Origin: a virus
Lineage: Duplodnaviria; Heunggongvirae; Uroviricota; Caudoviricetes
Length of the DNA stretch: 11,390 nucleotides
IMG/VR virus record: IMGVR_UViG_2690316028_000012
Reading direction: 5' to 3' (one strand)
The translations under genes and the position numbers were made by a program. The notes below the pieces were generated by a model. It was not told the origin of the DNA and did no database searches. It worked only from the letters and a program-made list of their open reading frames with translations. This document shows, in pieces, positions 1,356 through 11,030 of this stretch (positions are counted from its first letter, which is position 1; each line of letters opens with the position of its first letter).

Positions 1356-2321
1356 ATGAACGACTCTCATGAAACAACTGTGGTGCATAGAAATTTATGG
1401 CAGGAATCAGGTATTCCACCTTTGGACTACTGCACGATAGAGCGAGCATCAAAATTATTAAATTGTGAAATTGATGATATATGGCATTGGAAAGATAGAC
1501 TACATATAGACTTTTATGTCTATGCTGACTTTCTTGATTTCATTGAATCTGATGCCACCATCCACTTCAAAAAAGATGCTAATTTTATAACTGATTTATT
1601 ACTTATGTACCCAGAAGAAGTAAGGTTTACATTTCCTTTTCTTATTACCAGCGCAAGCAACGAAGTTTATATCCCAGCATCTGAAAGCGGTGCTTATGAG
1701 CTATTTTATGCACATAAACCACTGACAGTTGAAGACAGCGACAATAAAAATGTTTTTGAACAAATTGGCAAAAACTCTTTTATTGTAAGAAAATCAATTG
1801 CATGTGGATTGTTGCGTGTACGCGGTAGAACAACACGACATTATCATTCACAAGAATGTGGAGAACCATATGTGCGACTTGAAGCAACATTTGATTGTGA
1901 TCTATATAAGTTCAAAATGCAAAGTTCCCAAATTCACCTGAGTAGCCTGTCAGATAAAAACATTTATATAACAAAGGCTGATTTAGAATACCTTCATGAC
2001 GCAAAGGTTAATGGAAGTTTTGACGCAGCTAAGAGCAAAAAACGATACGAAATGGCGGTAGAACAGGAACTAATACCTGAAATAAAAAATAGCAACCATA
2101 ATGCCGAGAGACATGCTGAAAACAGGGAAAAACTTTTCAAATCTGCAATATATCTTTTGTCAAAGTATCCTGATGAATGCCGTGGCAAAAAGAAAGAAAT
2201 AAGCCCTGAGAAGTGGCGGGATTGCATAGTGGCTCATAAAGACGAAATTCCACCGTTAGCAATCACAAATGAAGATGTGATTTTGAGACACTTACGTGCT
2301 GCCGCCAACGGTAAGGGGTAG
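1356..2321 (+). CDS. Hypothetical protein, low-GC cargo gene of unknown function
   Basis: 321-aa ORF with RBS aaaaggtga 7 nt upstream of the ATG. Visibly AT-rich and rich in AAA/AAT/ATT/TTT codons compared with flanking genes. Followed by a strong intrinsic terminator. No catalytic or nucleotide-binding motif recognised by eye. Confidence 0.7.
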   Translation: MNDSHETTVVHRNLWQESGIPPLDYCTIERASKLLNCEIDDIWHWKDRLHIDFYVYADFLDFIESDATIHFKKDANFITDLLLMYPEEVRFTFPFLITSASNEVYIPASESGAYELFYAHKPLTVEDSDNKNVFEQIGKNSFIVRKSIACGLLRVRGRTTRHYHSQECGEPYVRLEATFDCDLYKFKMQSSQIHLSSLSDKNIYITKADLEYLHDAKVNGSFDAAKSKKRYEMAVEQELIPEIKNSNHNAERHAENREKLFKSAIYLLSKYPDECRGKKKEISPEKWRDCIVAHKDEIPPLAITNEDVILRHLRAAANGKG

Positions 2322-2337
2322 AGTAGCTAACTATTCA

Positions 2338-2367
2338 GGCACAGTATCATTACTGTGCCTTTTTATT
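2338..2367 (+). terminator. Rho-independent terminator downstream of the cargo gene
   Basis: 9-bp perfect stem GGCACAGTA / TACTGTGCC with 4-nt loop tcat, immediately followed by TTTTTATT. Confidence 0.75.
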
Positions 2368-2389
2368 GTTCATATATGTACAGATACTT

Positions 2390-2434
2390 CCTCCCGTAAC
2401 GAAGCAACAACTATCGCTAAGAGGTTACGGGAAG
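2390..2434. promoter_or_regulatory. Inverted repeat (cCtCCCGTAAC ... GTTACGGGAAg) spanning the alpA ribosome-binding site; candidate operator or translational-control hairpin
   Basis: 8-bp perfect core CCCGTAAC (2393-2400) / GTTACGGG (2424-2431), 10 of 11 over the extended arms, 23-bp spacer. The 3' arm contains the GGGAAG Shine-Dalgarno of alpA (ATG at 2436). Confidence 0.35.
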
Positions 2435-2435
2435 C

Positions 2436-2639
2436 ATGAACACCGACACTATTCCTACAAAAGGCTATATCAGACGCTTCCGCCTGGCTGAATTGCTGGG
2501 CGTTAGTGTATCCACCATTGATCGCAAAGTTCGCAGCGGCTCGCTACCGCGCCCGGTAAAGCTGGGGGAGAAGATTACCGCCTTTGATGCGGTAGAGATT
2601 AATAACTGGCTGGCGGAGCGCCGGGGAAAGGTGGCGTAA
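2436..2639 (+). CDS. alpA: AlpA-family phage transcriptional regulator (excisionase-like HTH)
   Basis: 67-aa protein with the characteristic AlpA HTH core RLAELLGVSVSTIDRKVRSGSLPRPVKLGEKITAFDAVEINNWL. Confidence 0.85.
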   Translation: MNTDTIPTKGYIRRFRLAELLGVSVSTIDRKVRSGSLPRPVKLGEKITAFDAVEINNWLAERRGKVA

Positions 2640-3073
2640 TGAAAAAGAAAAACCGCCCCGTACAGCAGGCGGATAAATCAGATATTCGCACGTCTGATAT
2701 TACGCCGACCACCAGCCCGGTACAAGTACCTAAGCGAACCCCAAAGAAACACCGCGCCCGCGTCTATATGCTGCGTACTGGTATAGAGGGATGGACAGAA
2801 AACGATATTCTGCGTTATTGCCGCCTTTCGTCTGGAAGGAACTACGCCAGCGAGTTAGAGCGCAGGCTTGATATTCAGCTTGAGCGTATAGACGAAAAGA
2901 ACCCCGACGGGATAGGGTCACATTTACGCTATCGCTTTACCGGGCGCGGTGACGTTCTAAAAGTTATTCGGCTTGTGAACCATAACGCCGACGCTGGCGG
3001 CTATCAGGGACTTTCTCAGCCTGAAATTGCCGACATTCTCAATCTATACCCGGACAATCTCACCGCCGCCTAA
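2639..3073 (+). CDS. Hypothetical protein
   Basis: 144-aa ORF. Its ATG overlaps the alpA stop (TAATG), and RBS aaaggtgg lies upstream. Basic N-terminus. No motif recognised. Confidence 0.55.
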   Translation: MKKKNRPVQQADKSDIRTSDITPTTSPVQVPKRTPKKHRARVYMLRTGIEGWTENDILRYCRLSSGRNYASELERRLDIQLERIDEKNPDGIGSHLRYRFTGRGDVLKVIRLVNHNADAGGYQGLSQPEIADILNLYPDNLTAA

Positions 3074-3085
3074 CGGAGACTGAAA

Positions 3086-3919
3086 ATGAACATCGAAAAA
3101 AGCAGATTAATTTCTGAGGCCGCCCCTCATCTGAACGCCTATCAGGGCACAATTAACGGTAATGAATTTGCCGCAATTGTCCCGGTTATTCCTGGTCATA
3201 TCGGTGGGCGTGAAACCAATATTGTTAGCGCAAAAGCGTTACACAAAGCGTTGGGCGTGGGAAAAGACTTCTCTACATGGATCACTGATCGCATCTCTGA
3301 ATATGACTTCACCATTGGGCACGATTACTCAGTCCATAAAACAATTTCCCCAAATCTGGGGAAAAGCCCGAATGGCACGGCTTACAGCAAGATTAAACAG
3401 TCTGGCAGACCCGGCAAAGACTATCTGTTAAGTGTCGGAATGGCGAAAGAACTGGCGATGGTCGAACGCACCGAACAGGGCCGCGCTATCCGCCGTTATT
3501 TCATCCAGTGCGAGGAAGAATTACAGCGTAGCGTGCCTGAAATCGCCGCCCGCTATCGTCGCCAGCTAAAAGCCCGTATCGGTGCCGCCAACCTGTTTAA
3601 ACCGATGTGCGTAGCGCTGGAAAGCGCCCGCGCAGAACAGGGTAAACAGACGCAGGCTCGCCACTACAGCAACGAGAGCAACATGATCGCCCGTATCGTG
3701 CTGGGTGGCATGACGGCGAAGCAGTGGGCGCAGGCAAATGGCATTACTGGCGAACCACGGGACAGCATGAACGCAGCACAGCTTGAACACCTCGCCTATC
3801 TCGAAAGCACCAATATCACGTTAATTGATATGGGCATGGAATATGAGCAGCGCAAAGGAGAACTCACCCGCCTGTCGCAACGCTGGCTCGCTAAACGTCT
3901 GGAGGTAAACCATGCGTAA
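3086..3919 (+). CDS. Phage antirepressor-like protein with N-terminal AntA/AntB-type domain
   Basis: 277-aa ORF. N-terminal segment SAKALHKALGVGKDFSTWITDRISEYDFTIGHDY resembles the AntA/AntB antirepressor domain consensus as recalled; not searched. Confidence 0.65.
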   Translation: MNIEKSRLISEAAPHLNAYQGTINGNEFAAIVPVIPGHIGGRETNIVSAKALHKALGVGKDFSTWITDRISEYDFTIGHDYSVHKTISPNLGKSPNGTAYSKIKQSGRPGKDYLLSVGMAKELAMVERTEQGRAIRRYFIQCEEELQRSVPEIAARYRRQLKARIGAANLFKPMCVALESARAEQGKQTQARHYSNESNMIARIVLGGMTAKQWAQANGITGEPRDSMNAAQLEHLAYLESTNITLIDMGMEYEQRKGELTRLSQRWLAKRLEVNHA

Positions 3920-4094: not shown

Positions 4095-4381
4095 ACCTGC
4101 CGCCCAGAAAGAAGCCTTTAATCTGGCTGGCATGTTGTCAAAAGTTGACATCTGCAACCTTACAAAACCTGATATTGATACCGCAGCGCCCGGAGTTCCG
4201 TTACCAGTACGCGAGGCGCTTACCCTCAACAAAAAGATGGTGAGCCGTGCACAGGAAAAACTCTTAAAGGGTTACGGTTTTATCTGGTATGACCACCTAG
4301 CAGAGAAAAGCTGTTATAGTCCAAGCGTTGCTGCAAAATCAGCAACCGGGATTGGAACCCCGAACACACTAAGGGCGACAC

Positions 4382-4404
4382 AGACGCCGAAAGCGTCTTT
4401 TTTT
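4382..4404 (+). terminator. Candidate intrinsic terminator inside the operon
   Basis: Stem AGACGC (4382-4387) / GCGTCT (4393-4398), loop cgaaa, followed by a run of seven T to 4404. Confidence 0.5.
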
Positions 4405-4593
4405 GTGTCCGATCACCACGCACATCAAATCAGCGGCCTTGCCCGTACTGTATCTATGGTGGCGTTAGTGGGGCTACGTTCGCGTAGGCCGGTTTCCTTT
4501 GTGTCCGGTAGTTCCAACCCTGCTAACGTCACCGCCACTATTAAGATTGGAACCTTATGCGGTGACTCCTTAAACACAAAGGAGGCTGCCATA

Positions 4594-5849: not shown

Positions 5850-6191
5850 ATGATTACTAAAAATTTCCGACTGAATGCGCTGGCGAATAAGTATGCGTCG
5901 GCACTGTATAACCACATTACCTCCACCAGCGGCGGGGACTATTTCATGGTTGATGCGGACGGCCTCGCCGTCCGTGTGGAAATCGTCAATGGAGTAAAAG
6001 GCGTTCGCAGCCTGATCGATAGCTACACACTGGCAGCCATGAAAGTGTTCTACCCGCAGTGGGAAACCGTGGGGATCGAGCTTCTTGATCGTTGCGTCAC
6101 TAAGGACGGATTGACTGACGTCGGGCGCGAGATATGGCAAAGCATGATTAATGATATGGGCGCGACCGTGGCAGGAGGCAACCATGCGTAA
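5850..6191 (+). CDS. Hypothetical protein (113 aa)
   Basis: RBS gaggga upstream of ATG 5850. Stop overlaps the primase start in ATGCGTAA. Confidence 0.55.
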   Translation: MITKNFRLNALANKYASALYNHITSTSGGDYFMVDADGLAVRVEIVNGVKGVRSLIDSYTLAAMKVFYPQWETVGIELLDRCVTKDGLTDVGREIWQSMINDMGATVAGGNHA

Positions 6192-8949
6192 TATCGACCT
6201 TATCCGCGAAGTGACCAGCGCCGCAGCAGGGCGCTGGCCTTATGTGCTGGCTGGATTGTCTATCGACGTGCCTGATTCATCGCGCCGCCATTCTCCATGC
6301 CCTGCATGTGGTGGAAAAGACCGTTTCAGATTCGACGACAACGGGCGCGGTAGCTTTATCTGCAACCAGTGTGGCGCTGGTGACGGGCTGGATTTAATCA
6401 AGCGGGTTAACAACTGCGACACTACGGAGGCGGCACAGCTTGCCGCTGACGTGCTGGGTATTGATTACCAGGCAGCGCAAACCGACCCGGTGGCAGCGAG
6501 CCATAGAAGAGAGCAACTGGAAGCTGACCGCCAGCAGCGTGAGCAGGAGCGCCAGAAACAGGCAGCAGAGGACGCAGAGCAGCGAAGGGCTACGTTTGCC
6601 CATCTGTATGCCGGAATGCGCCAGAGTGCCACACAGGGCGAATCTGATTACCTGCAATCAAAAGGGCTGACCGGGTTTAACTATCCGGTTATGCCGGATG
6701 GTTCGTTATTGCTGGAGCTGGTGGACGAATCCGGCGCAGTGGCAGCAGCGCAAACCATTACACCGCAGGGAGAGAAGCGACTCCTGACAGGTTCAGCAAA
6801 GCGCGGGGCATATCACGCCGTAAACGCGCCAGAATCGCCGCAGAGCGTTTTAATTGCCGAGGGGCTGGCAACCGCTTTATCAGTCCACCTGATGCGCCCT
6901 GACGCGCTGACAGTGTGCGCCATTGATGCGGGCAACCTGCTACCCGTTGCCGAAGTGATGCGCCGGATATATCCAGCCACGCAGATTATCATTGCCGCAG
7001 ATAACGACCACCAGCAGGACGAACAGGCGAACACGGGCAAAGATGCCGCAGAGAAAGCCGCCTTATCCGTGGCTGGCTGGGTGGCACTGCCGCCGACAGA
7101 CTACAAAGCCGACTGGGACGACTACCGCCAGCAAAACGGGCTGGAAGTCGCTACGGCTGCGTTTAACGATTCGATGTACCAGATTCAAGGGGAAGCCGTG
7201 AAACCGCGATTGCAAGCCATTGAGGGCGGTAAAACTGACCATCCAGAGAAAGATCCACTAAAACCCCACATTGAGAGCCGCAAAGATGGCGTTTTCTGGG
7301 TAACGCCGAAGGTGGACAAGGAAAGCGGGGAGATCGTCAACGCTGAAAGCTGGTTATGTTCCCCGTTGGAGGTTATCGGCACGGGACGCGACGACAAAGA
7401 TCAGTATCTTATTATCTCATGGCTGGCATTCGGTGCAGGCATACCGACAACAGCGGCTATCCCGCTGGCTGATATTGGCGAGCGTGAAGGCTGGCGCACC
7501 CTGAAAGCTGGTGGCGTCAACGTCACAACGAAAAACAGCCTACGGGCGATTCTTGCCGACTGGTTACAGCGAAGCGGCTCGCGTGAATTGTGGCGCGTTG
7601 CTCATGCTACAGGCTGGCAGTGCGGGGCATACATCATGCCGGACGGGGAAATCATCGGCACACCTGAGCGGCCTGTTTTGTTCAGCGGGCGCAGTTCAGC
7701 CGCTGCCGGGTATACCGTAGCAGGAACGTCGGAAAGCTGGCGTAACAGTGTTGCGCGGCTGGCATACGGTAATTACGCGATGATGACAGGCATCGCCGCA
7801 GCACTGGCAGCGCCATTAATCGGGGTGGCAGATCGTGACGGATTCGGGATTCATTTTTATGAGCAATCGAGCGCCGGGAAAACAACCACGCAGAACGTGG
7901 CGAGCAGTCTATACGGCAACCCTGATGCCTTGCGCCTGACGTGGTACGGGACGGCGCTGGGGCTGATAAACGAGGCCGCCGCCCACAATGACGGGCTGAT
8001 GCCACTGGATGAAGTCGGACAGGGCGCTGACCCGATAAGCGTTTCTCAGTCTGCCTATGCCCTGTTTAACGGCGTGGGGAAATTGCAGGGAGCAAAGGAA
8101 GGAGGCAACCGGGATCTGAAACGCTGGCGCACCGTGGCAATCAGCACCGGGGAAGTGGACTTAGAAACCTTCATCGCCACCGCCGGACGCAAGACCAAAG
8201 CCGGGCAACTGGTGCGCTTGCTGAATATCCCGTTAAGTAAGGCGGTGCGCTTTCATGAACACCAGACAGGGAAAGAACACGCCGACGCGCTGAAAGATGC
8301 TTATCAGCACCATCATGGCGCTGCCGGGAGGGAGTGGATCAGATGGCTTTCAGACCACCAGCAACAGGCGATTGATGTCGTTCGTGAGTGTGAAGCCCGC
8401 TGGCGCAGTCTAATCCCTGCCGACTATGGGGAACAGGTTCACCGTGTAGGGGCAAGATTTGCCATTCTGGAGGCCGCTTTACTGATGGGTGGCGTGGTTA
8501 CTGGCTGGGATGCTCAAACGTGCCGGGATGCGATACAGCACGCCTATAACGCATGGCTAAAAGAGTTCGGCACGGGGAACAAAGAGCACCAGCAGATCAT
8601 CGAGCAGGCGGAGGCATTTTTAAATGCCTATGGCCTGAGTCGATTCGCGCCGCTGCCTTACGACCCCGCCAGCCTGCCGATTCATAATCTGGCTGGATAC
8701 AGGCAGCGCGGAAATCATGACGATTCACCGATAACGTTTTACACGTTCCCCGACACTTTCGATAAGGATATTGCTAAGGGGTTTAACAGGCAGCAGGTGG
8801 CCCGCGTCCTGAAAGAATCGGGGATGCTTACCCCTTCGGCAGACGGAAAAAAATTTCAGAGGAAAAGCCCGCGCATTCAGGGGAGGCAGATTAACGTTTA
8901 CGTTTTGCAATTCCTGCCGGATGGGGAGGAAAGCCAGCCAGAGCAATAA
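6184..8949 (+). CDS. Replication primase-helicase (P4 alpha-like: zinc-ribbon + TOPRIM primase + DUF927/D5-type NTPase)
   Basis: Start placed at ATG 6184 (AGGAGG 5 nt upstream) rather than the tracker's 6151. C4 zinc ribbon CPACGGKDRFRF...FICNQCG. TOPRIM motifs LIAEGLATALS and IIIAADNDHQ. P-loop-like YEQSSAGKTT and Walker-B-like LMPLDEVG in the C-terminal half. Confidence 0.9.
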   Translation: MRNIDLIREVTSAAAGRWPYVLAGLSIDVPDSSRRHSPCPACGGKDRFRFDDNGRGSFICNQCGAGDGLDLIKRVNNCDTTEAAQLAADVLGIDYQAAQTDPVAASHRREQLEADRQQREQERQKQAAEDAEQRRATFAHLYAGMRQSATQGESDYLQSKGLTGFNYPVMPDGSLLLELVDESGAVAAAQTITPQGEKRLLTGSAKRGAYHAVNAPESPQSVLIAEGLATALSVHLMRPDALTVCAIDAGNLLPVAEVMRRIYPATQIIIAADNDHQQDEQANTGKDAAEKAALSVAGWVALPPTDYKADWDDYRQQNGLEVATAAFNDSMYQIQGEAVKPRLQAIEGGKTDHPEKDPLKPHIESRKDGVFWVTPKVDKESGEIVNAESWLCSPLEVIGTGRDDKDQYLIISWLAFGAGIPTTAAIPLADIGEREGWRTLKAGGVNVTTKNSLRAILADWLQRSGSRELWRVAHATGWQCGAYIMPDGEIIGTPERPVLFSGRSSAAAGYTVAGTSESWRNSVARLAYGNYAMMTGIAAALAAPLIGVADRDGFGIHFYEQSSAGKTTTQNVASSLYGNPDALRLTWYGTALGLINEAAAHNDGLMPLDEVGQGADPISVSQSAYALFNGVGKLQGAKEGGNRDLKRWRTVAISTGEVDLETFIATAGRKTKAGQLVRLLNIPLSKAVRFHEHQTGKEHADALKDAYQHHHGAAGREWIRWLSDHQQQAIDVVRECEARWRSLIPADYGEQVHRVGARFAILEAALLMGGVVTGWDAQTCRDAIQHAYNAWLKEFGTGNKEHQQIIEQAEAFLNAYGLSRFAPLPYDPASLPIHNLAGYRQRGNHDDSPITFYTFPDTFDKDIAKGFNRQQVARVLKESGMLTPSADGKKFQRKSPRIQGRQINVYVLQFLPDGEESQPEQ

Positions 8950-8975: not shown

Positions 8976-9233
8976 GGTGGTTCAGGTGGTTCAGGTGGTT
9001 CAGTAAGTAATTGTTATTGATTTATAATGTTTTTTTGTAAGAAATTGAACCACCACTGAACCACCAAACGGGTATTTTGAACCACCAGAGAGAAACGGAT
9101 TATTTTCACTGGCTGGCAGTGAACCACCAAGAAGGGCGACTGAACCACCAGATAAATTTAAAAGGTGGTTCAGCAAAACCCAGAGTTGGCGCGGCCTAGA
9201 GGGGTACTGAACCACTGAACCACCTGAACCACC
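8976..9233. repeat. Iteron cluster (GGTGGTTCAG / CTGAACCACC, ~12 copies in both orientations) flanking an AT-rich segment; probable replication origin
   Basis: Forward copies at 8976, 8985, 8994 (tandem, 9-bp period) and 9164. Reverse copies at 9046, 9056, 9078, 9120, 9140, 9207 (partial), 9216, 9225. AT-rich stretch at 9004-9046. Sits immediately 3' of the primase gene. Confidence 0.8.
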
Positions 9234-9337
9234 AACTTTTTTGTTTATATACCAATAAATCTGGCGAAGGTGTCCCACAATAAGACGGAGCCGGGTAATC
9301 TTCATTAGCAAAACTAATAATTCGAGGTATTCGCAAA

Positions 9338-9810: not shown

Positions 9811-10122
9811 ATGGTAAACGACAGGAAAGCCGAGGAACTGGAAGCAAAGGGGCTGTATCGCAGGGCAGCTACACGCTGGCAGGAAGTCATGATGATTTGT
9901 GCTGAGGACGATGATCGGGAATGGGTAAAGCAGCGACGTGATACGTGTCTGACGAACGTGAAGCGCCCGCCAGTGAAAACCGATGATTACGGCGATCTGC
10001 ATAAAGCAGTCACTGAGACACAACACCGCATGGGGATAGCGCAACCAAACGGCAACGCCTTCCGATTAAACGGTGGTAAGAAGCAACGACAGGCCACCAG
10101 CGGGGGCGACAGTTCGCAGTAA
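9811..10122 (+). CDS. PerC-family transcriptional regulator-like protein
   Basis: 103-aa ORF. N-terminus KAEELEAKGLYRRAATRWQEVMM matches the PerC/Pch family signature as recalled. RBS gaggggga upstream. Confidence 0.7.
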   Translation: MVNDRKAEELEAKGLYRRAATRWQEVMMICAEDDDREWVKQRRDTCLTNVKRPPVKTDDYGDLHKAVTETQHRMGIAQPNGNAFRLNGGKKQRQATSGGDSSQ

Positions 10123-10536
10123 GGTTCGCACCAAAACGGCTGTAAATTCTGTACTGTTCTTGACAGATTTTAAACCCTCGTAGCGCTAAACCCGCGCCAG
10201 TCGCGGGCTGGAAGCCAGAACGTGATTTAGGTTGTCCATAATATTCTGGTTCGCGCCACTGGTTCGCAGTACGCAGTCAGGTACGCGGCAAAACTGCGCA
10301 TTCAGCGTGCGTACCATCTGACGGATTCTAACGGCGGCAATGCGATTTGCGCAGTTCACAAAAAATCTGCGCAAAACGAAACGGATACCAATGCGCAAAC
10401 CATCCTCAACCCCGCGCGGTTACTGGCTTTATTGATGTGAAATTGCAAAATTGGTGCGCAATTTACAGTAAAATACGCATATTATTTCGTATTCAATTTG
10501 CGCACCGTTCGCAGTTAATGCGCAGTAATTCGCAGG
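10113..10536. repeat. Array of at least 10 TGCGCA / TTCGCAGT(A) motifs in a ~420-bp non-coding block; candidate regulator- or replication-protein-binding array
   Basis: TTCGCAGTAA at 10113; GGTTCGCACC at 10123; GGTTCGCGCC at 10248; GGTTCGCAGTA at 10261; TGCGCA at 10294; TGCGCAGT at 10348; TGCGCAAA at 10368 and 10392; TGCGCAAT at 10455; TGCGCAC at 10499; TTCGCAGTT at 10508; TGCGCAGTAA at 10519; TTCGCAGG at 10529. Also a TTGACA at 10160 and a GC palindrome CCCGCG-ccagt-CGCGGG at 10191-10207. Confidence 0.5.
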
Positions 10537-10546
10537 AGGCCAGCCA

Positions 10547-10747
10547 GTGAGAGACAGAACGCGCAGCTATACCACCGACCTGCCCCGTATAGGGTTGCCA
10601 TTCCTTACGAACATGCGTCGCAGGCTGACGGACGCCGAACCGGGTACACAGCTTTATACCCAGACCGAAAGCGGAACGTTGTATACCTTCCGGCAAGCCG
10701 ACAGCTACGCCATTGCCGCCCAGTCGGCATTATCTGGAAGGGAATAG
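10547..10747 (+). CDS. Small hypothetical protein (66 aa), GTG start
   Basis: AGGAGG at 10534-10539, 7 nt upstream of GTG 10547. No recognisable motif. Confidence 0.4.
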   Translation: MRDRTRSYTTDLPRIGLPFLTNMRRRLTDAEPGTQLYTQTESGTLYTFRQADSYAIAAQSALSGRE

Positions 10748-10750
10748 CTT

Positions 10751-10769
10751 GCAATTGATAATCATTATC
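10751..10769. promoter_or_regulatory. Fur-box-like palindrome (gcaattGATAATCATTATC)
   Basis: 16 of 19 positions match the Fur consensus GATAATGATAATCATTATC, with a perfect GATAAT-c-ATTATC inverted hexamer core. Target transcript unknown. Confidence 0.4.
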
Positions 10770-11030
10770 TTTTCGGGTCCTTTCCGGCGATCCGCCCTGT
10801 TACGGGGCGGCGTCCGCGCAGATTCTCGATATATATGAGAATTTTTCTGGTTTTTGCCGTTTCCGTTCTTCTTCATGCTATCTCTCTGTTTTTGCAGGAA
10901 ACACACCCTCAAAAGAAAGGGAATGGCTAGGCCTTAAAAACGGTAATTTTCCATTTGTTGTTTCCTTTCTCTGTTTTTCGCCTGGAGTTCGTCATGGAGG
11001 TTAATAAAAAACGCCCTGTGAATCATCGCT

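Follow-up and report, generated by a model that had tools for sequence, protein, structure and literature searches.

A dense array of T-N-CGCA hexamers linked to two uncharacterised gene families of Gram-negative phage satellites

Multi-site operators are exemplified by the omega-protein heptad arrays of pSM19035, the MetJ met-boxes and the P2 Cox and P4 Vis boxes. Among replication sites, the crr of P4 repeats the same iteron as its ori, and among packaging sites, the pac of P1 contains seven TGATCA/G hexamers, Dam sites within 162 bp, which flank the cleavage region and are recognised by PacA/PacB. Here we describe an array of hexamers at positions 10113-10536 of a viral stretch of 11,390 nucleotides (nts) (IMG/VR record IMGVR_UViG_2690316028_000012; hereafter the window, meaning the whole stretch), which is an integrative phage satellite of the Gram-negative phage-inducible chromosomal island (PICI) type. 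Such elements are hard to classify (PMC11773190), and in the model island EcCICFT073 packaging involves a non-lambda cosB recognised by Rpp-TerS (PMC6739421). No description of such arrays, or of the HGGxSTG and orf125 proteins encoded next to them, was found in the searchable literature.

The hexamer array and its linkage to orf203 and orf125

The original prediction was that at least ten copies of a related motif, more than expected by chance, are crowded into the non-coding block after a PerC-like gene. When T[GTA]CGCA was counted on the + strand of 10113-10536, 14 copies were found (16 if G is allowed as the final base), and none of 5000 dinucleotide-preserving shuffles of the region reached this number (mean 1.15, maximum 6), confirming both the density and its excess over chance. 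TGCGCA was observed 7 times and CGCAGT 6 times, against shuffle means of 0.52 and 0.22, respectively. As a control for multiple testing, the top 6-mer of the region (7 copies) was compared with the top of any 6-mer in 1000 shuffles, which averaged 3.06 with a maximum of 8; the count of a lone hexamer is less extreme than that of the T[GTA]CGCA family. The array, which has a CGCA motif core and a G+C content of 48%, reaches 13 sites per 400 nts compared with a mean of 0.93 per 400 nts elsewhere in the window, and the remaining 11 kb contain only 11 sites, none of them clustered. No consistently conserved open reading frame (ORF) was found in the array region: annotation of the E. coli relatives by the Prokaryotic Genome Annotation Pipeline (PGAP) shows none there, and ORFs called by program differ in frame and length between close relatives.

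Reference proteins and clusters of the motif were located on 29 loci drawn from E. coli genomes, IMG/VR and the species representatives of GTDB, the full comparison spanning about 50 loci (cited below by our own numbers, such as L001). Every cluster on the 29 loci (5-28 sites in 200-850 bp) is followed directly, on the same strand, by orf203 and/or orf125, and PGAP annotates no gene inside any of them. The 203-aa protein orf203 has a CPxC...CxxC zinc ribbon and, according to family search and alignment, represents the C-terminal two-thirds of the proteins called 'HGGxSTG domain-containing' by NCBI. orf125 is a 125-aa protein with 108 homologues, all of them in Enterobacterales and without a Pfam domain; no homologue was found in 50,697 phage genomes. 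Its N-terminal motif, SGWGGKRxGAGAPxGNxNAVKHGERS, is invariant in 34-35 homologues that share only 37-78% identity. The DNA hexamer is likewise constant across hosts.

The suggestion that the array is a multi-site operator for the GTG-initiated ORF starting at 10547 turned out to be the best supported of those originally made, since the array is always immediately 5′ of, and co-oriented with, orf203 or orf125 over the approximately 50 loci. It requires a correction, however, because the ORF that adjoins the array in the window (10547..10747, + strand, 66 aa) is truncated: comparison with the relatives by blastn and tblastn identified it as a 5′ remnant holding only the first 167 nts of the 203-codon gene. 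In some elements each gene has its own array. L002 and L003 carry separate arrays before orf125 and before orf203, and L049 has arrays before two genes. In Serratia liquefaciens (L040), an array is followed by a full-length HGGxSTG-orf203 and by orf125, which overlaps the HGGxSTG-orf203 stop codon, and further downstream come a DUF2280 gene and another array, this one preceding a 98-aa gene. Relatives that lack the array with the same gene content had been named as evidence that would speak against a function. Two array-less loci, Lonsdalea L014 and L015, lack orf203 and orf125 as well, although a neighbouring anchor gene is 92% identical.

The linkage extends to distant homologues. Those fetched at 45-70% identity were tested for an excess of sites in the 500 nts upstream of the gene, and a significant excess was observed in 9 of the 12 sampled contexts (Poisson P from 1e-2 to 3e-17), namely in E. 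coli L039, Klebsiella L036 and L049 (two genes), Serratia L040 and L032, Salmonella L035, Pantoea L047 and the window itself. DNA between the copies could not be aligned to the window in L039, L040 and L047, indicating selection on the motif rather than inheritance of a block. When phage and plasmid DNA was searched for similarity to the array, no phage matched and the only matches were three satellite-like 'plasmid' records, and the idea was set aside. The linkage of the array to two uncharacterised satellite gene families is robust, and it is previously unreported.

Two further features of these leaders were observed. A conserved box, CTTACCCCATGA, is located 45-70 nts upstream of full-length HGGxSTG start codons in four unrelated contexts (L040 at about 7225, L047 at about 3935, L049 at about 3950 and L011 at about 5655) and may be a promoter or an RNA element. 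In the leaders before the orf125 homologues of Serratia L032 (5210-5880) and Salmonella L035 (5330-5465), clusters of other short words, GTTTCCA/TGGAAAC, GGTCGGA/TCCGACC and TGAACCGA, stand beside the TACGCA cluster.

Anatomy of the array and a proposed mechanism

Inspection of the array, all of whose copies are given here for the + strand, suggests a division into blocks. Two distal copies 12 nts apart (10113..10130), TTCGCAGT at 10113 (10113-10120), which overlaps the PerC stop codon TAA at 10120-10122, and TTCGCA at 10125, are kept in PerC-bearing relatives including Klebsiella L036. They are followed by a conserved, motif-poor unit (10140..10249), which precedes each array in the relatives (19 copies of the unit aligned from 18 loci) and is present in duplicate in L002 and L003; it contains GTACTGTTCTTGACAGATTTTAAACCC, the palindrome CCCGCGccagtCGCGGG (10191-10207), GTGATTTAGG and TAATAT (10239-10244). 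The most conserved motif block (10250..10313) consists of TTCGCG at 10250, TTCGCAGT at 10263, TACGCAGT at 10270, TACGCG at 10282, TGCGCA at 10295 and TGCGTA at 10308, with spacings of 13, 7, 12, 13 and 13 nts. Conservation of its core, TGGT[TAG]CGCAGT[AG]CGCA, reaches at least 90% across the 19 aligned units, in which CGCAGT is fixed and position 2 of the motif varies among T, A and G. A middle block (10341..10397) comprises TGCGAT at 10341, TGCGCAGT at 10348, TGCGCA at 10368, the co-conserved word ACGAAACGGATA and TGCGCA at 10392, and its arrangement TGCGCAaaacgaaacggata..aaTGCGCA is also present in Salmonella L035. Next comes an inverted repeat (10453..10506), whose arms GGTGCGCAATTT and AAATTGCGCACC, with TGCGCA at 10455 and at 10499, enclose an AT-rich core of about 30 nts bearing TACGCA at 10474; this core is kept even in relatives without the proximal copies (L013, L017 and L006). 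The four proximal copies (10499..10535), identical in many relatives, are TGCGCA at 10499, TTCGCAGT at 10508, TGCGCAGT at 10519 and TTCGCAG at 10529, spaced by 9, 11 and 10 nts, and the last of them abuts the Shine-Dalgarno sequence GGAGG (10535-10539) of the GTG ORF.

The anatomy of the motif was derived from 148 distinct instances. TGCGCA sites are mostly A-n-TGCGCA-n-T, a 10-bp palindrome, and the non-palindromic sites follow R-T-W-CGCA-R-T, with a good half, GCA-R-T, and a weaker half. Both orientations occur, as in the perfect palindrome TGCGAATTCGCA and in TTCGCAgtTGCGTA. Arrays of the window type are biased 2-7:1 towards the direction of the gene (7:1 for the non-palindromic sites of the window), whereas the ratio is 5:4 in L012 and L003 and 3:6 in L010, and L040 has many reverse copies. 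Neighbouring sites are preferentially spaced by 6-7, 12-13, 19-20 and 24-25 bp, the arrays counted being partly homologous; for the same arrays strict helical phasing was considered and rejected, as the peaks fall near multiples of approximately 6.3 bp without a single clean period. The presence of both orientations and of preferred spacings is better explained by a small protein recognising DNA than by a linear RNA motif, and the anatomy as a whole points to a small, closely packing protein that would recognise double-stranded DNA. A second word, (A)TACGAAAC(C/G)GA, recurs inside arrays of E. coli-type, Serratia and Salmonella loci, usually beside a hexamer copy (10376-10387 in the window; the arrays of L004, L007, L008 and L018; about 5605-5620 in L032; about 5800 in L035), and may be a second recognition element.

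From these comparisons we tentatively infer that the array is a DNA-level multi-site operator or activator-site array, and the leader, of the late ('packaging-zone') satellite genes orf203/HGGxSTG and orf125, an interpretation that we regard as possible and place ahead of the others. The recurrent 5′ co-oriented position, the occurrence of one array per gene in some elements and the copies abutting the ribosome-binding site fit such an array. In L017 and L006, the unit and the array come after an apparent intrinsic terminator of the preceding cargo gene, as called by eye; the consensus scan did not call it, probably owing to its long loop. If this reading is right, expression of orf203 needs a promoter within the unit or the array. 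Where a multi-site operator would contain at least three closely spaced short sites, direct and inverted, the window has 15 (with spacing peaks at 6-7 and 12-13 bp), and the leader position is repeated across the relatives, in 9 of the 12 contexts and with several arrays in an element. In the mechanism we propose, a small sequence-specific protein would recognise T-N-CGCA, the ideal site being the palindrome A-n-TGCGCA-n-T, and in each site the GCA(R)T half would be strong and the other half degenerate. Such a protein would occupy many adjacent sites, in either orientation and 6-13 bp apart, and occupancy would set the transcription of the gene immediately downstream from a promoter that is probably factor-dependent. 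Genes for DNA-binding proteins are typically linked tightly to the sites that they themselves bind, and because such linkage holds here across unrelated contexts and the N-terminus of orf125 is invariant, the products of the linked genes rank as the likeliest binders. They might bind through the Gly/Lys/His-rich N-terminal motif of orf125 and the related HGGxSTG module, in which case the array would be autoregulatory; the alternative binders would be PerC or a helper-phage factor. In the window, the gene that would be regulated has been truncated by the acquisition of a lambda-type cos, leaving the array in front of a 66-codon remnant, and the array there may be a recent relic or be served in trans.

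Several observations weigh against this interpretation. The binder is at present a candidate, put forward from gene linkage, and AlphaFold models of orf125 and HGGxSTG-orf203, which are confident in part (predicted local distance difference test 76 and 84, respectively), have no recognisable DNA-binding fold: orf125 was modelled as a disordered conserved N-terminus and a helical hairpin, and HGGxSTG-orf203 as helices with a beta-rich zinc-ribbon domain, neither matching a known fold. Sequence searches of the PDB with the two proteins were empty, and Pfam, NCBIfam, PHROGs and PADLOC gave nothing above family thresholds, so that these models and searches yielded no structure-based function for either. 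In the window itself orf125 is absent and orf203 truncated, and an autoregulatory loop therefore cannot act in cis. No sigma-70 consensus promoter was found in five arrays, compared with 0.8-1.7 expected by chance; the arrays thus adjoin no recognisable promoter, although an activator-dependent promoter is compatible with this result, and any promoter would probably be factor-dependent. No array was found upstream of orf125 in Dickeya L030, or of HGGxSTG-orf203 in the phage-like L011 and in Vibrio L046. The GTTTCCA and GGTCGGA arrays in the Serratia and Salmonella leaders are unexplained by a simple one-regulator model. Finally, an arrangement of many short sites around an AT-rich core is equally the anatomy of an origin or of a packaging site.

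Other explanations for the array

The gene next to the array encodes a 103-aa PerC-family protein (9811..10122, + strand; Pfam PF06069, E = 4e-31), whose last codons and stop carry the first motif copy. PerC family members are described transcription regulators, common in Gram-negative PICIs and without an assigned role in satellites (PMC11773190), and the adjacent PerC might bind the hexamers and switch on the late genes. The array directly follows PerC in the family of the window and in L036/L037, an unrelated Klebsiella element, and PerC is nearby in L039. The predicted position after PerC thus holds, but dependence on PerC does not: L004 and L005 have the array with other genes in the place of PerC, L040 and L032 also have arrays without it, 4 kb of cargo separates PerC from the array in L017 and L006, Lonsdalea L015 has a PerC-like gene without an array, and in EcCICFT073 PerC is followed by a terminator and no array. 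In addition, Pch/PerC works by displacing H-NS and has no defined motif, binding where DNA is most AT-rich (PMC4764244), unlike a CGCA core in DNA of 48% G+C. With the poor co-occurrence, this weakens PerC as a binder to the point where we give a PerC-responsive site hardly any probability. AlpA, which activates its own promoter in EcCICFT073 (PMC6092414), was rejected as a binder, because no motif cluster exists at the alpA promoter; upstream of alpA there is no T[GTA]CGCA in the window or in L001 and L002 has three scattered copies in 560 nts. We consider it very unlikely that the array acts as RNA, transcribed into a long 5′ leader in which repeats of UNCGCA(G)U would bind an RNA-binding protein or form hairpins controlling termination or translation. 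Several features would suit such a leader: transcription of PerC could read through into the array, as no terminator separates the two on the + strand; the last copies are in the 5′ untranslated region beside the ribosome-binding site; the gene-strand bias of the non-palindromic sites was noted above; inverted pairs of copies in Pantoea L047 give terminator-like hairpins on the gene strand; and a ProQ/FinO protein is encoded nearby in some relatives. The array RNA also folds slightly more stably than shuffles, but the z-score of -1.79 is weak and is expected from a palindromic motif; no conserved structure was found, the single palindrome CCCGCGccagtCGCGGG not being maintained, and both orientations are common in other arrays. 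Rfam 15 gave no match in 10113-10536 at E <= 1, and with the weak z-score a known RNA family or a strong RNA structure was discarded. A sigma-54-like cTGGTTCGCAGTACGCA (GG-N10-GC) is most simply two motif copies 7 nts apart, and no enhancer-binding ATPase is encoded. Least probable of all is that the array has no function of its own and is a recombination-prone repetitive spacer, hitch-hiking with the cassette and expanding or contracting by slippage. Copy number and block content do vary by insertions and deletions between close relatives, insertions at repeated words split the blocks of L017 and L006, and the window variant keeps its array despite the truncated gene downstream; yet upstream of homologous genes this hexamer is in excess even in genera whose intervening DNA is unrelated, and the aligned units vary at motif position 2 only.

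A second cis-acting replication site, either with iterons as in P4 crr or as an origin for another initiator (of a helper or a co-resident element), had been offered in the original prediction. The array resembles true origins in that a short word recurs about ten times or more, in either orientation, to both sides of an AT-rich core, with the inverted arms enclosing a 30-nt stretch and more copies on either side, and in Serratia L032 the iteron-like TGAACCGA cluster adjoins the TACGCA cluster. The cognate origin of the window, however, is located at 8977..9234, directly 3′ of the primase gene (6151-8949), and consists of 12 TGAACCACC/GGTGGTTCA iterons that flank an AT-rich stretch, so that the array motif is distinct from the iterons, as predicted, and unlike P4 crr. 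Each primase allele is followed directly by its own array of 8-mer iterons, of which eight types were found (TGAACCACC, TGAACCAAC, GGTAGACA, TAGGGATA, CCTGTACC, ACGTCTAC, GCGGGATA and GAGACAAC), none of them T[GTA]CGCA; even the primase of L001, 89% identical to that of the window, has TGAACCAAC instead of TGAACCACC. The hexamer array is independent of the primase, as it is not directly 3′ of it, its word does not co-vary with it, and it co-occurs with at least four unrelated primase types. Because the iterons change with the primase allele and never become the array motif, a cognate or alternative origin found no match and a crr-like second origin is disfavoured; the array moreover tracks orf203 and orf125 rather than replication genes, its copies overlap a ribosome-binding site, and no candidate initiator is known. 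For these reasons we judge this explanation highly improbable. The main rival, which we consider unlikely, is a pac- or cosB-like packaging-recognition array, whose hexamers would be sites for a satellite protein resembling a small terminase subunit or redirecting packaging (orf125, HGGxSTG-orf203 or DUF2280) and so recruit the helper terminase; the lambda-type cos of the window would then be a later replacement of an array-based system. The layout of repeats followed by a gene mirrors lambda cosB-Nu1, the cos fragment is inserted precisely at the array site, with no lambda-like cosN in relatives that lack it, and the Serratia and Salmonella leaders have a GTTTCCA array, which we take to resemble the GTTTCC core of the lambda R sites. 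orf125 is beside or near a DUF2280 gene downstream of arrays in Klebsiella and Serratia relatives, its N-terminus gives weak small-terminase matches (NCBIfam NF040601 with E = 6.6e-4, and phrog_1889). The window itself has no terS. The array is in the post-origin zone that PICI papers term the packaging module (PMC11773190, PMC6739421), and phage DUF2280 genes sit directly before the large terminase gene (table in PMC7760358). This evidence is circumstantial, and the terminase matches are below the family thresholds. Several arrays occur in an element, each before a gene and 200-850 bp long; the phage genomes searched, as described above, contain no orf125 homologue; and packaging of the window can be explained by its lambda-type cos alone, whose cosQ, cosN and GTTTCC boxes are all outside the array (10775-10980) with none inside. 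The one phage examined, Klebsiella phage 2 LV-2017, whose DUF2280 is 65% identical, has no array within 4 kb of that gene, and a pac site shared with DUF2280-type phages was accordingly dropped, as was a cosN-like reading of the palindrome CCCGCGccagtCGCGGG, which the 19 aligned units do not maintain. A broader version of the packaging idea, in which the arrays would be recognition sites of a satellite-specific packaging-specificity system (orf125 with the HGGxSTG/zinc-ribbon protein, and DUF2280 in some lineages) and would form, with the GTTTCCA and GGTCGGA arrays, a modular 'multi-adaptor' region for capture by the terminases of different helpers, the lambda-cos of the window being one such swap, seems to us decidedly unlikely.

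Some observations made during these comparisons concern origins and phages. Iteron arrays after the primase were located at 11225-11475 in L001, 11292-11515 in L002, 6810-7051 in L003, 2646-2830 in L004, 3304-3581 in L039 and 4151-4413 in L040. Clusters of 5-6 TGAACCAA, which equals one of the origin iteron types, are found away from any primase gene (L036 9401-9512, L008 4942-5054, L010 8972-9083, L021 763-866 and L022 10485-10588), one of them in a Klebsiella element, where it separates the integrase from the last cargo gene. Klebsiella phage 2 LV-2017 (L045) has a 1.3-kb unannotated gap at 2112-3428, between the spanin and the genes preceding the DUF2280/large-terminase pair, which contains no T[GTA]CGCA cluster.

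The satellite, its cos fragment and comparison with known systems

The genes of the window are arranged as integrase (1-1260), int-alpA RNA motif (1269-1335, Rfam), AlpA, AntA/Bro-N, C4 and isrK RNAs in the Ash/Icd region, DUF927 primase (6151-8949), iteron origin, single-stranded DNA-binding protein (SSB) and PerC. The Rfam matches at 4314-4539 to the C4 antisense RNA, its a1/b1 target and isrK indicate that the satellite carries an antisense immunity module of the P1/P7/P4 type in the Ash/Icd region. The E. coli relatives are inserted between yicC and dinD. In some relatives a gene for a ProQ/FinO-domain RNA chaperone is located between SSB and PerC (L039 4723-5250, L040 5394-5951), and clusters of 5-7 copies of GGTGTAC or ATGTACA, which are probably integrase arm-type or excisionase sites, are found just upstream of the integrase, near the attachment site (L001 2222-2269, L002 3286-3329, L006 17137-17396).

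Outside the array, the window has a lambda-type cos site (10775..10996, + strand), consisting of a cosQ-like GGGTCCTTTCCGG (10775-10787), a cosN-like GGGGCGGCGTCC (10804-10815), three GTTTCC boxes resembling R3, R2 and R1 (about 10857-10980) and a Nu1 remnant of only the first codons, whose ATG is at 10994, all on the + strand; the names of the boxes follow what we take to be the lambda cos sequence. The fragment matches the genome ends of lambdoid phages, such as 44134-44370 of the 44375 nts of mEp237, and resembles cos1 of EcCICFT073. From 10714 onward (10714-11030), it has displaced the 3′ part of orf203 together with the next two genes of the relatives, and it is unique to the window variant among the 29 loci; the loci without it have no lambda-like cosN anywhere. 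The comparison of about 50 loci shows the array to be independent of cos. The exact product of the 66-aa GTG ORF is indexed in 43 blocks of the collection, indicating that the cos variant is widespread, and the three loci of this variant that were retrieved have two primase types and two cosB alleles. A sister contig, L042, has the same cosN with a different cosB allele, its 64 substitutions being confined to the cosB region from 10846.

Gram-negative satellites of the PICI type are abundant, and the array bears on how late genes are switched and how members without a recognisable cos or terS are packaged. If it is an operator array, a regulatory node of the late zone has been identified, and if it is a packaging site, it would represent a new way for satellites to hijack terminases. 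In either case the T-N-CGCA array is a compact and easily recognised cis element tied to two partly satellite-restricted protein families, and it opens the way to experiments with clear candidate protein-DNA pairs, with reporter constructs and with natural variants that carry 5-28 copies. The spot it occupies shows modular turnover, in the course of which a lambda cos fragment, whose cosB alleles are interchangeable, has taken the place of the late gene.

Compared with the known systems, the array shares with P1 pac a cluster of palindromic hexamers in about seven copies (TGCGCA occurs 7 times), whereas no proteins such as PacA/PacB, methylation logic or cleavage site are evident at the array. 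Like lambda cosB (R3-I1-R2-R1 before Nu1) and the non-lambda cosB of EcCICFT073, it consists of repeats right in front of a small gene, within the packaging zone of the satellite, with DUF2280, which takes the TerS position, near in the relatives; it differs from them in having no adjacent nicking site, the cos of the window being 240 bp further on with GTTTCC boxes of its own, and in a copy number far above three R sites, and EcCICFT073 has no such array. With the ori and crr of Gram-negative PICIs and P4 it has in common many copies of a 6-9-bp word, in both orientations, over 250-400 bp with an AT-rich stretch, in the same kind of element, but those origins come directly after the primase and change their word with its allele, whereas the array is primase-independent, precedes orf203 or orf125 and is sometimes present twice in an element. 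Unlike the multi-site operators (omega heptads, met-boxes, Cox/Vis boxes), the array has no known cognate protein or recognisable sigma-70 promoter, its motif is new, and it is longer than is typical, with up to 28 sites in 850 bp. It nevertheless agrees with them in consisting of 6-8 bp sites, contiguous or about one helical turn apart, direct and inverted and variable in copy number, in the leader of a gene.

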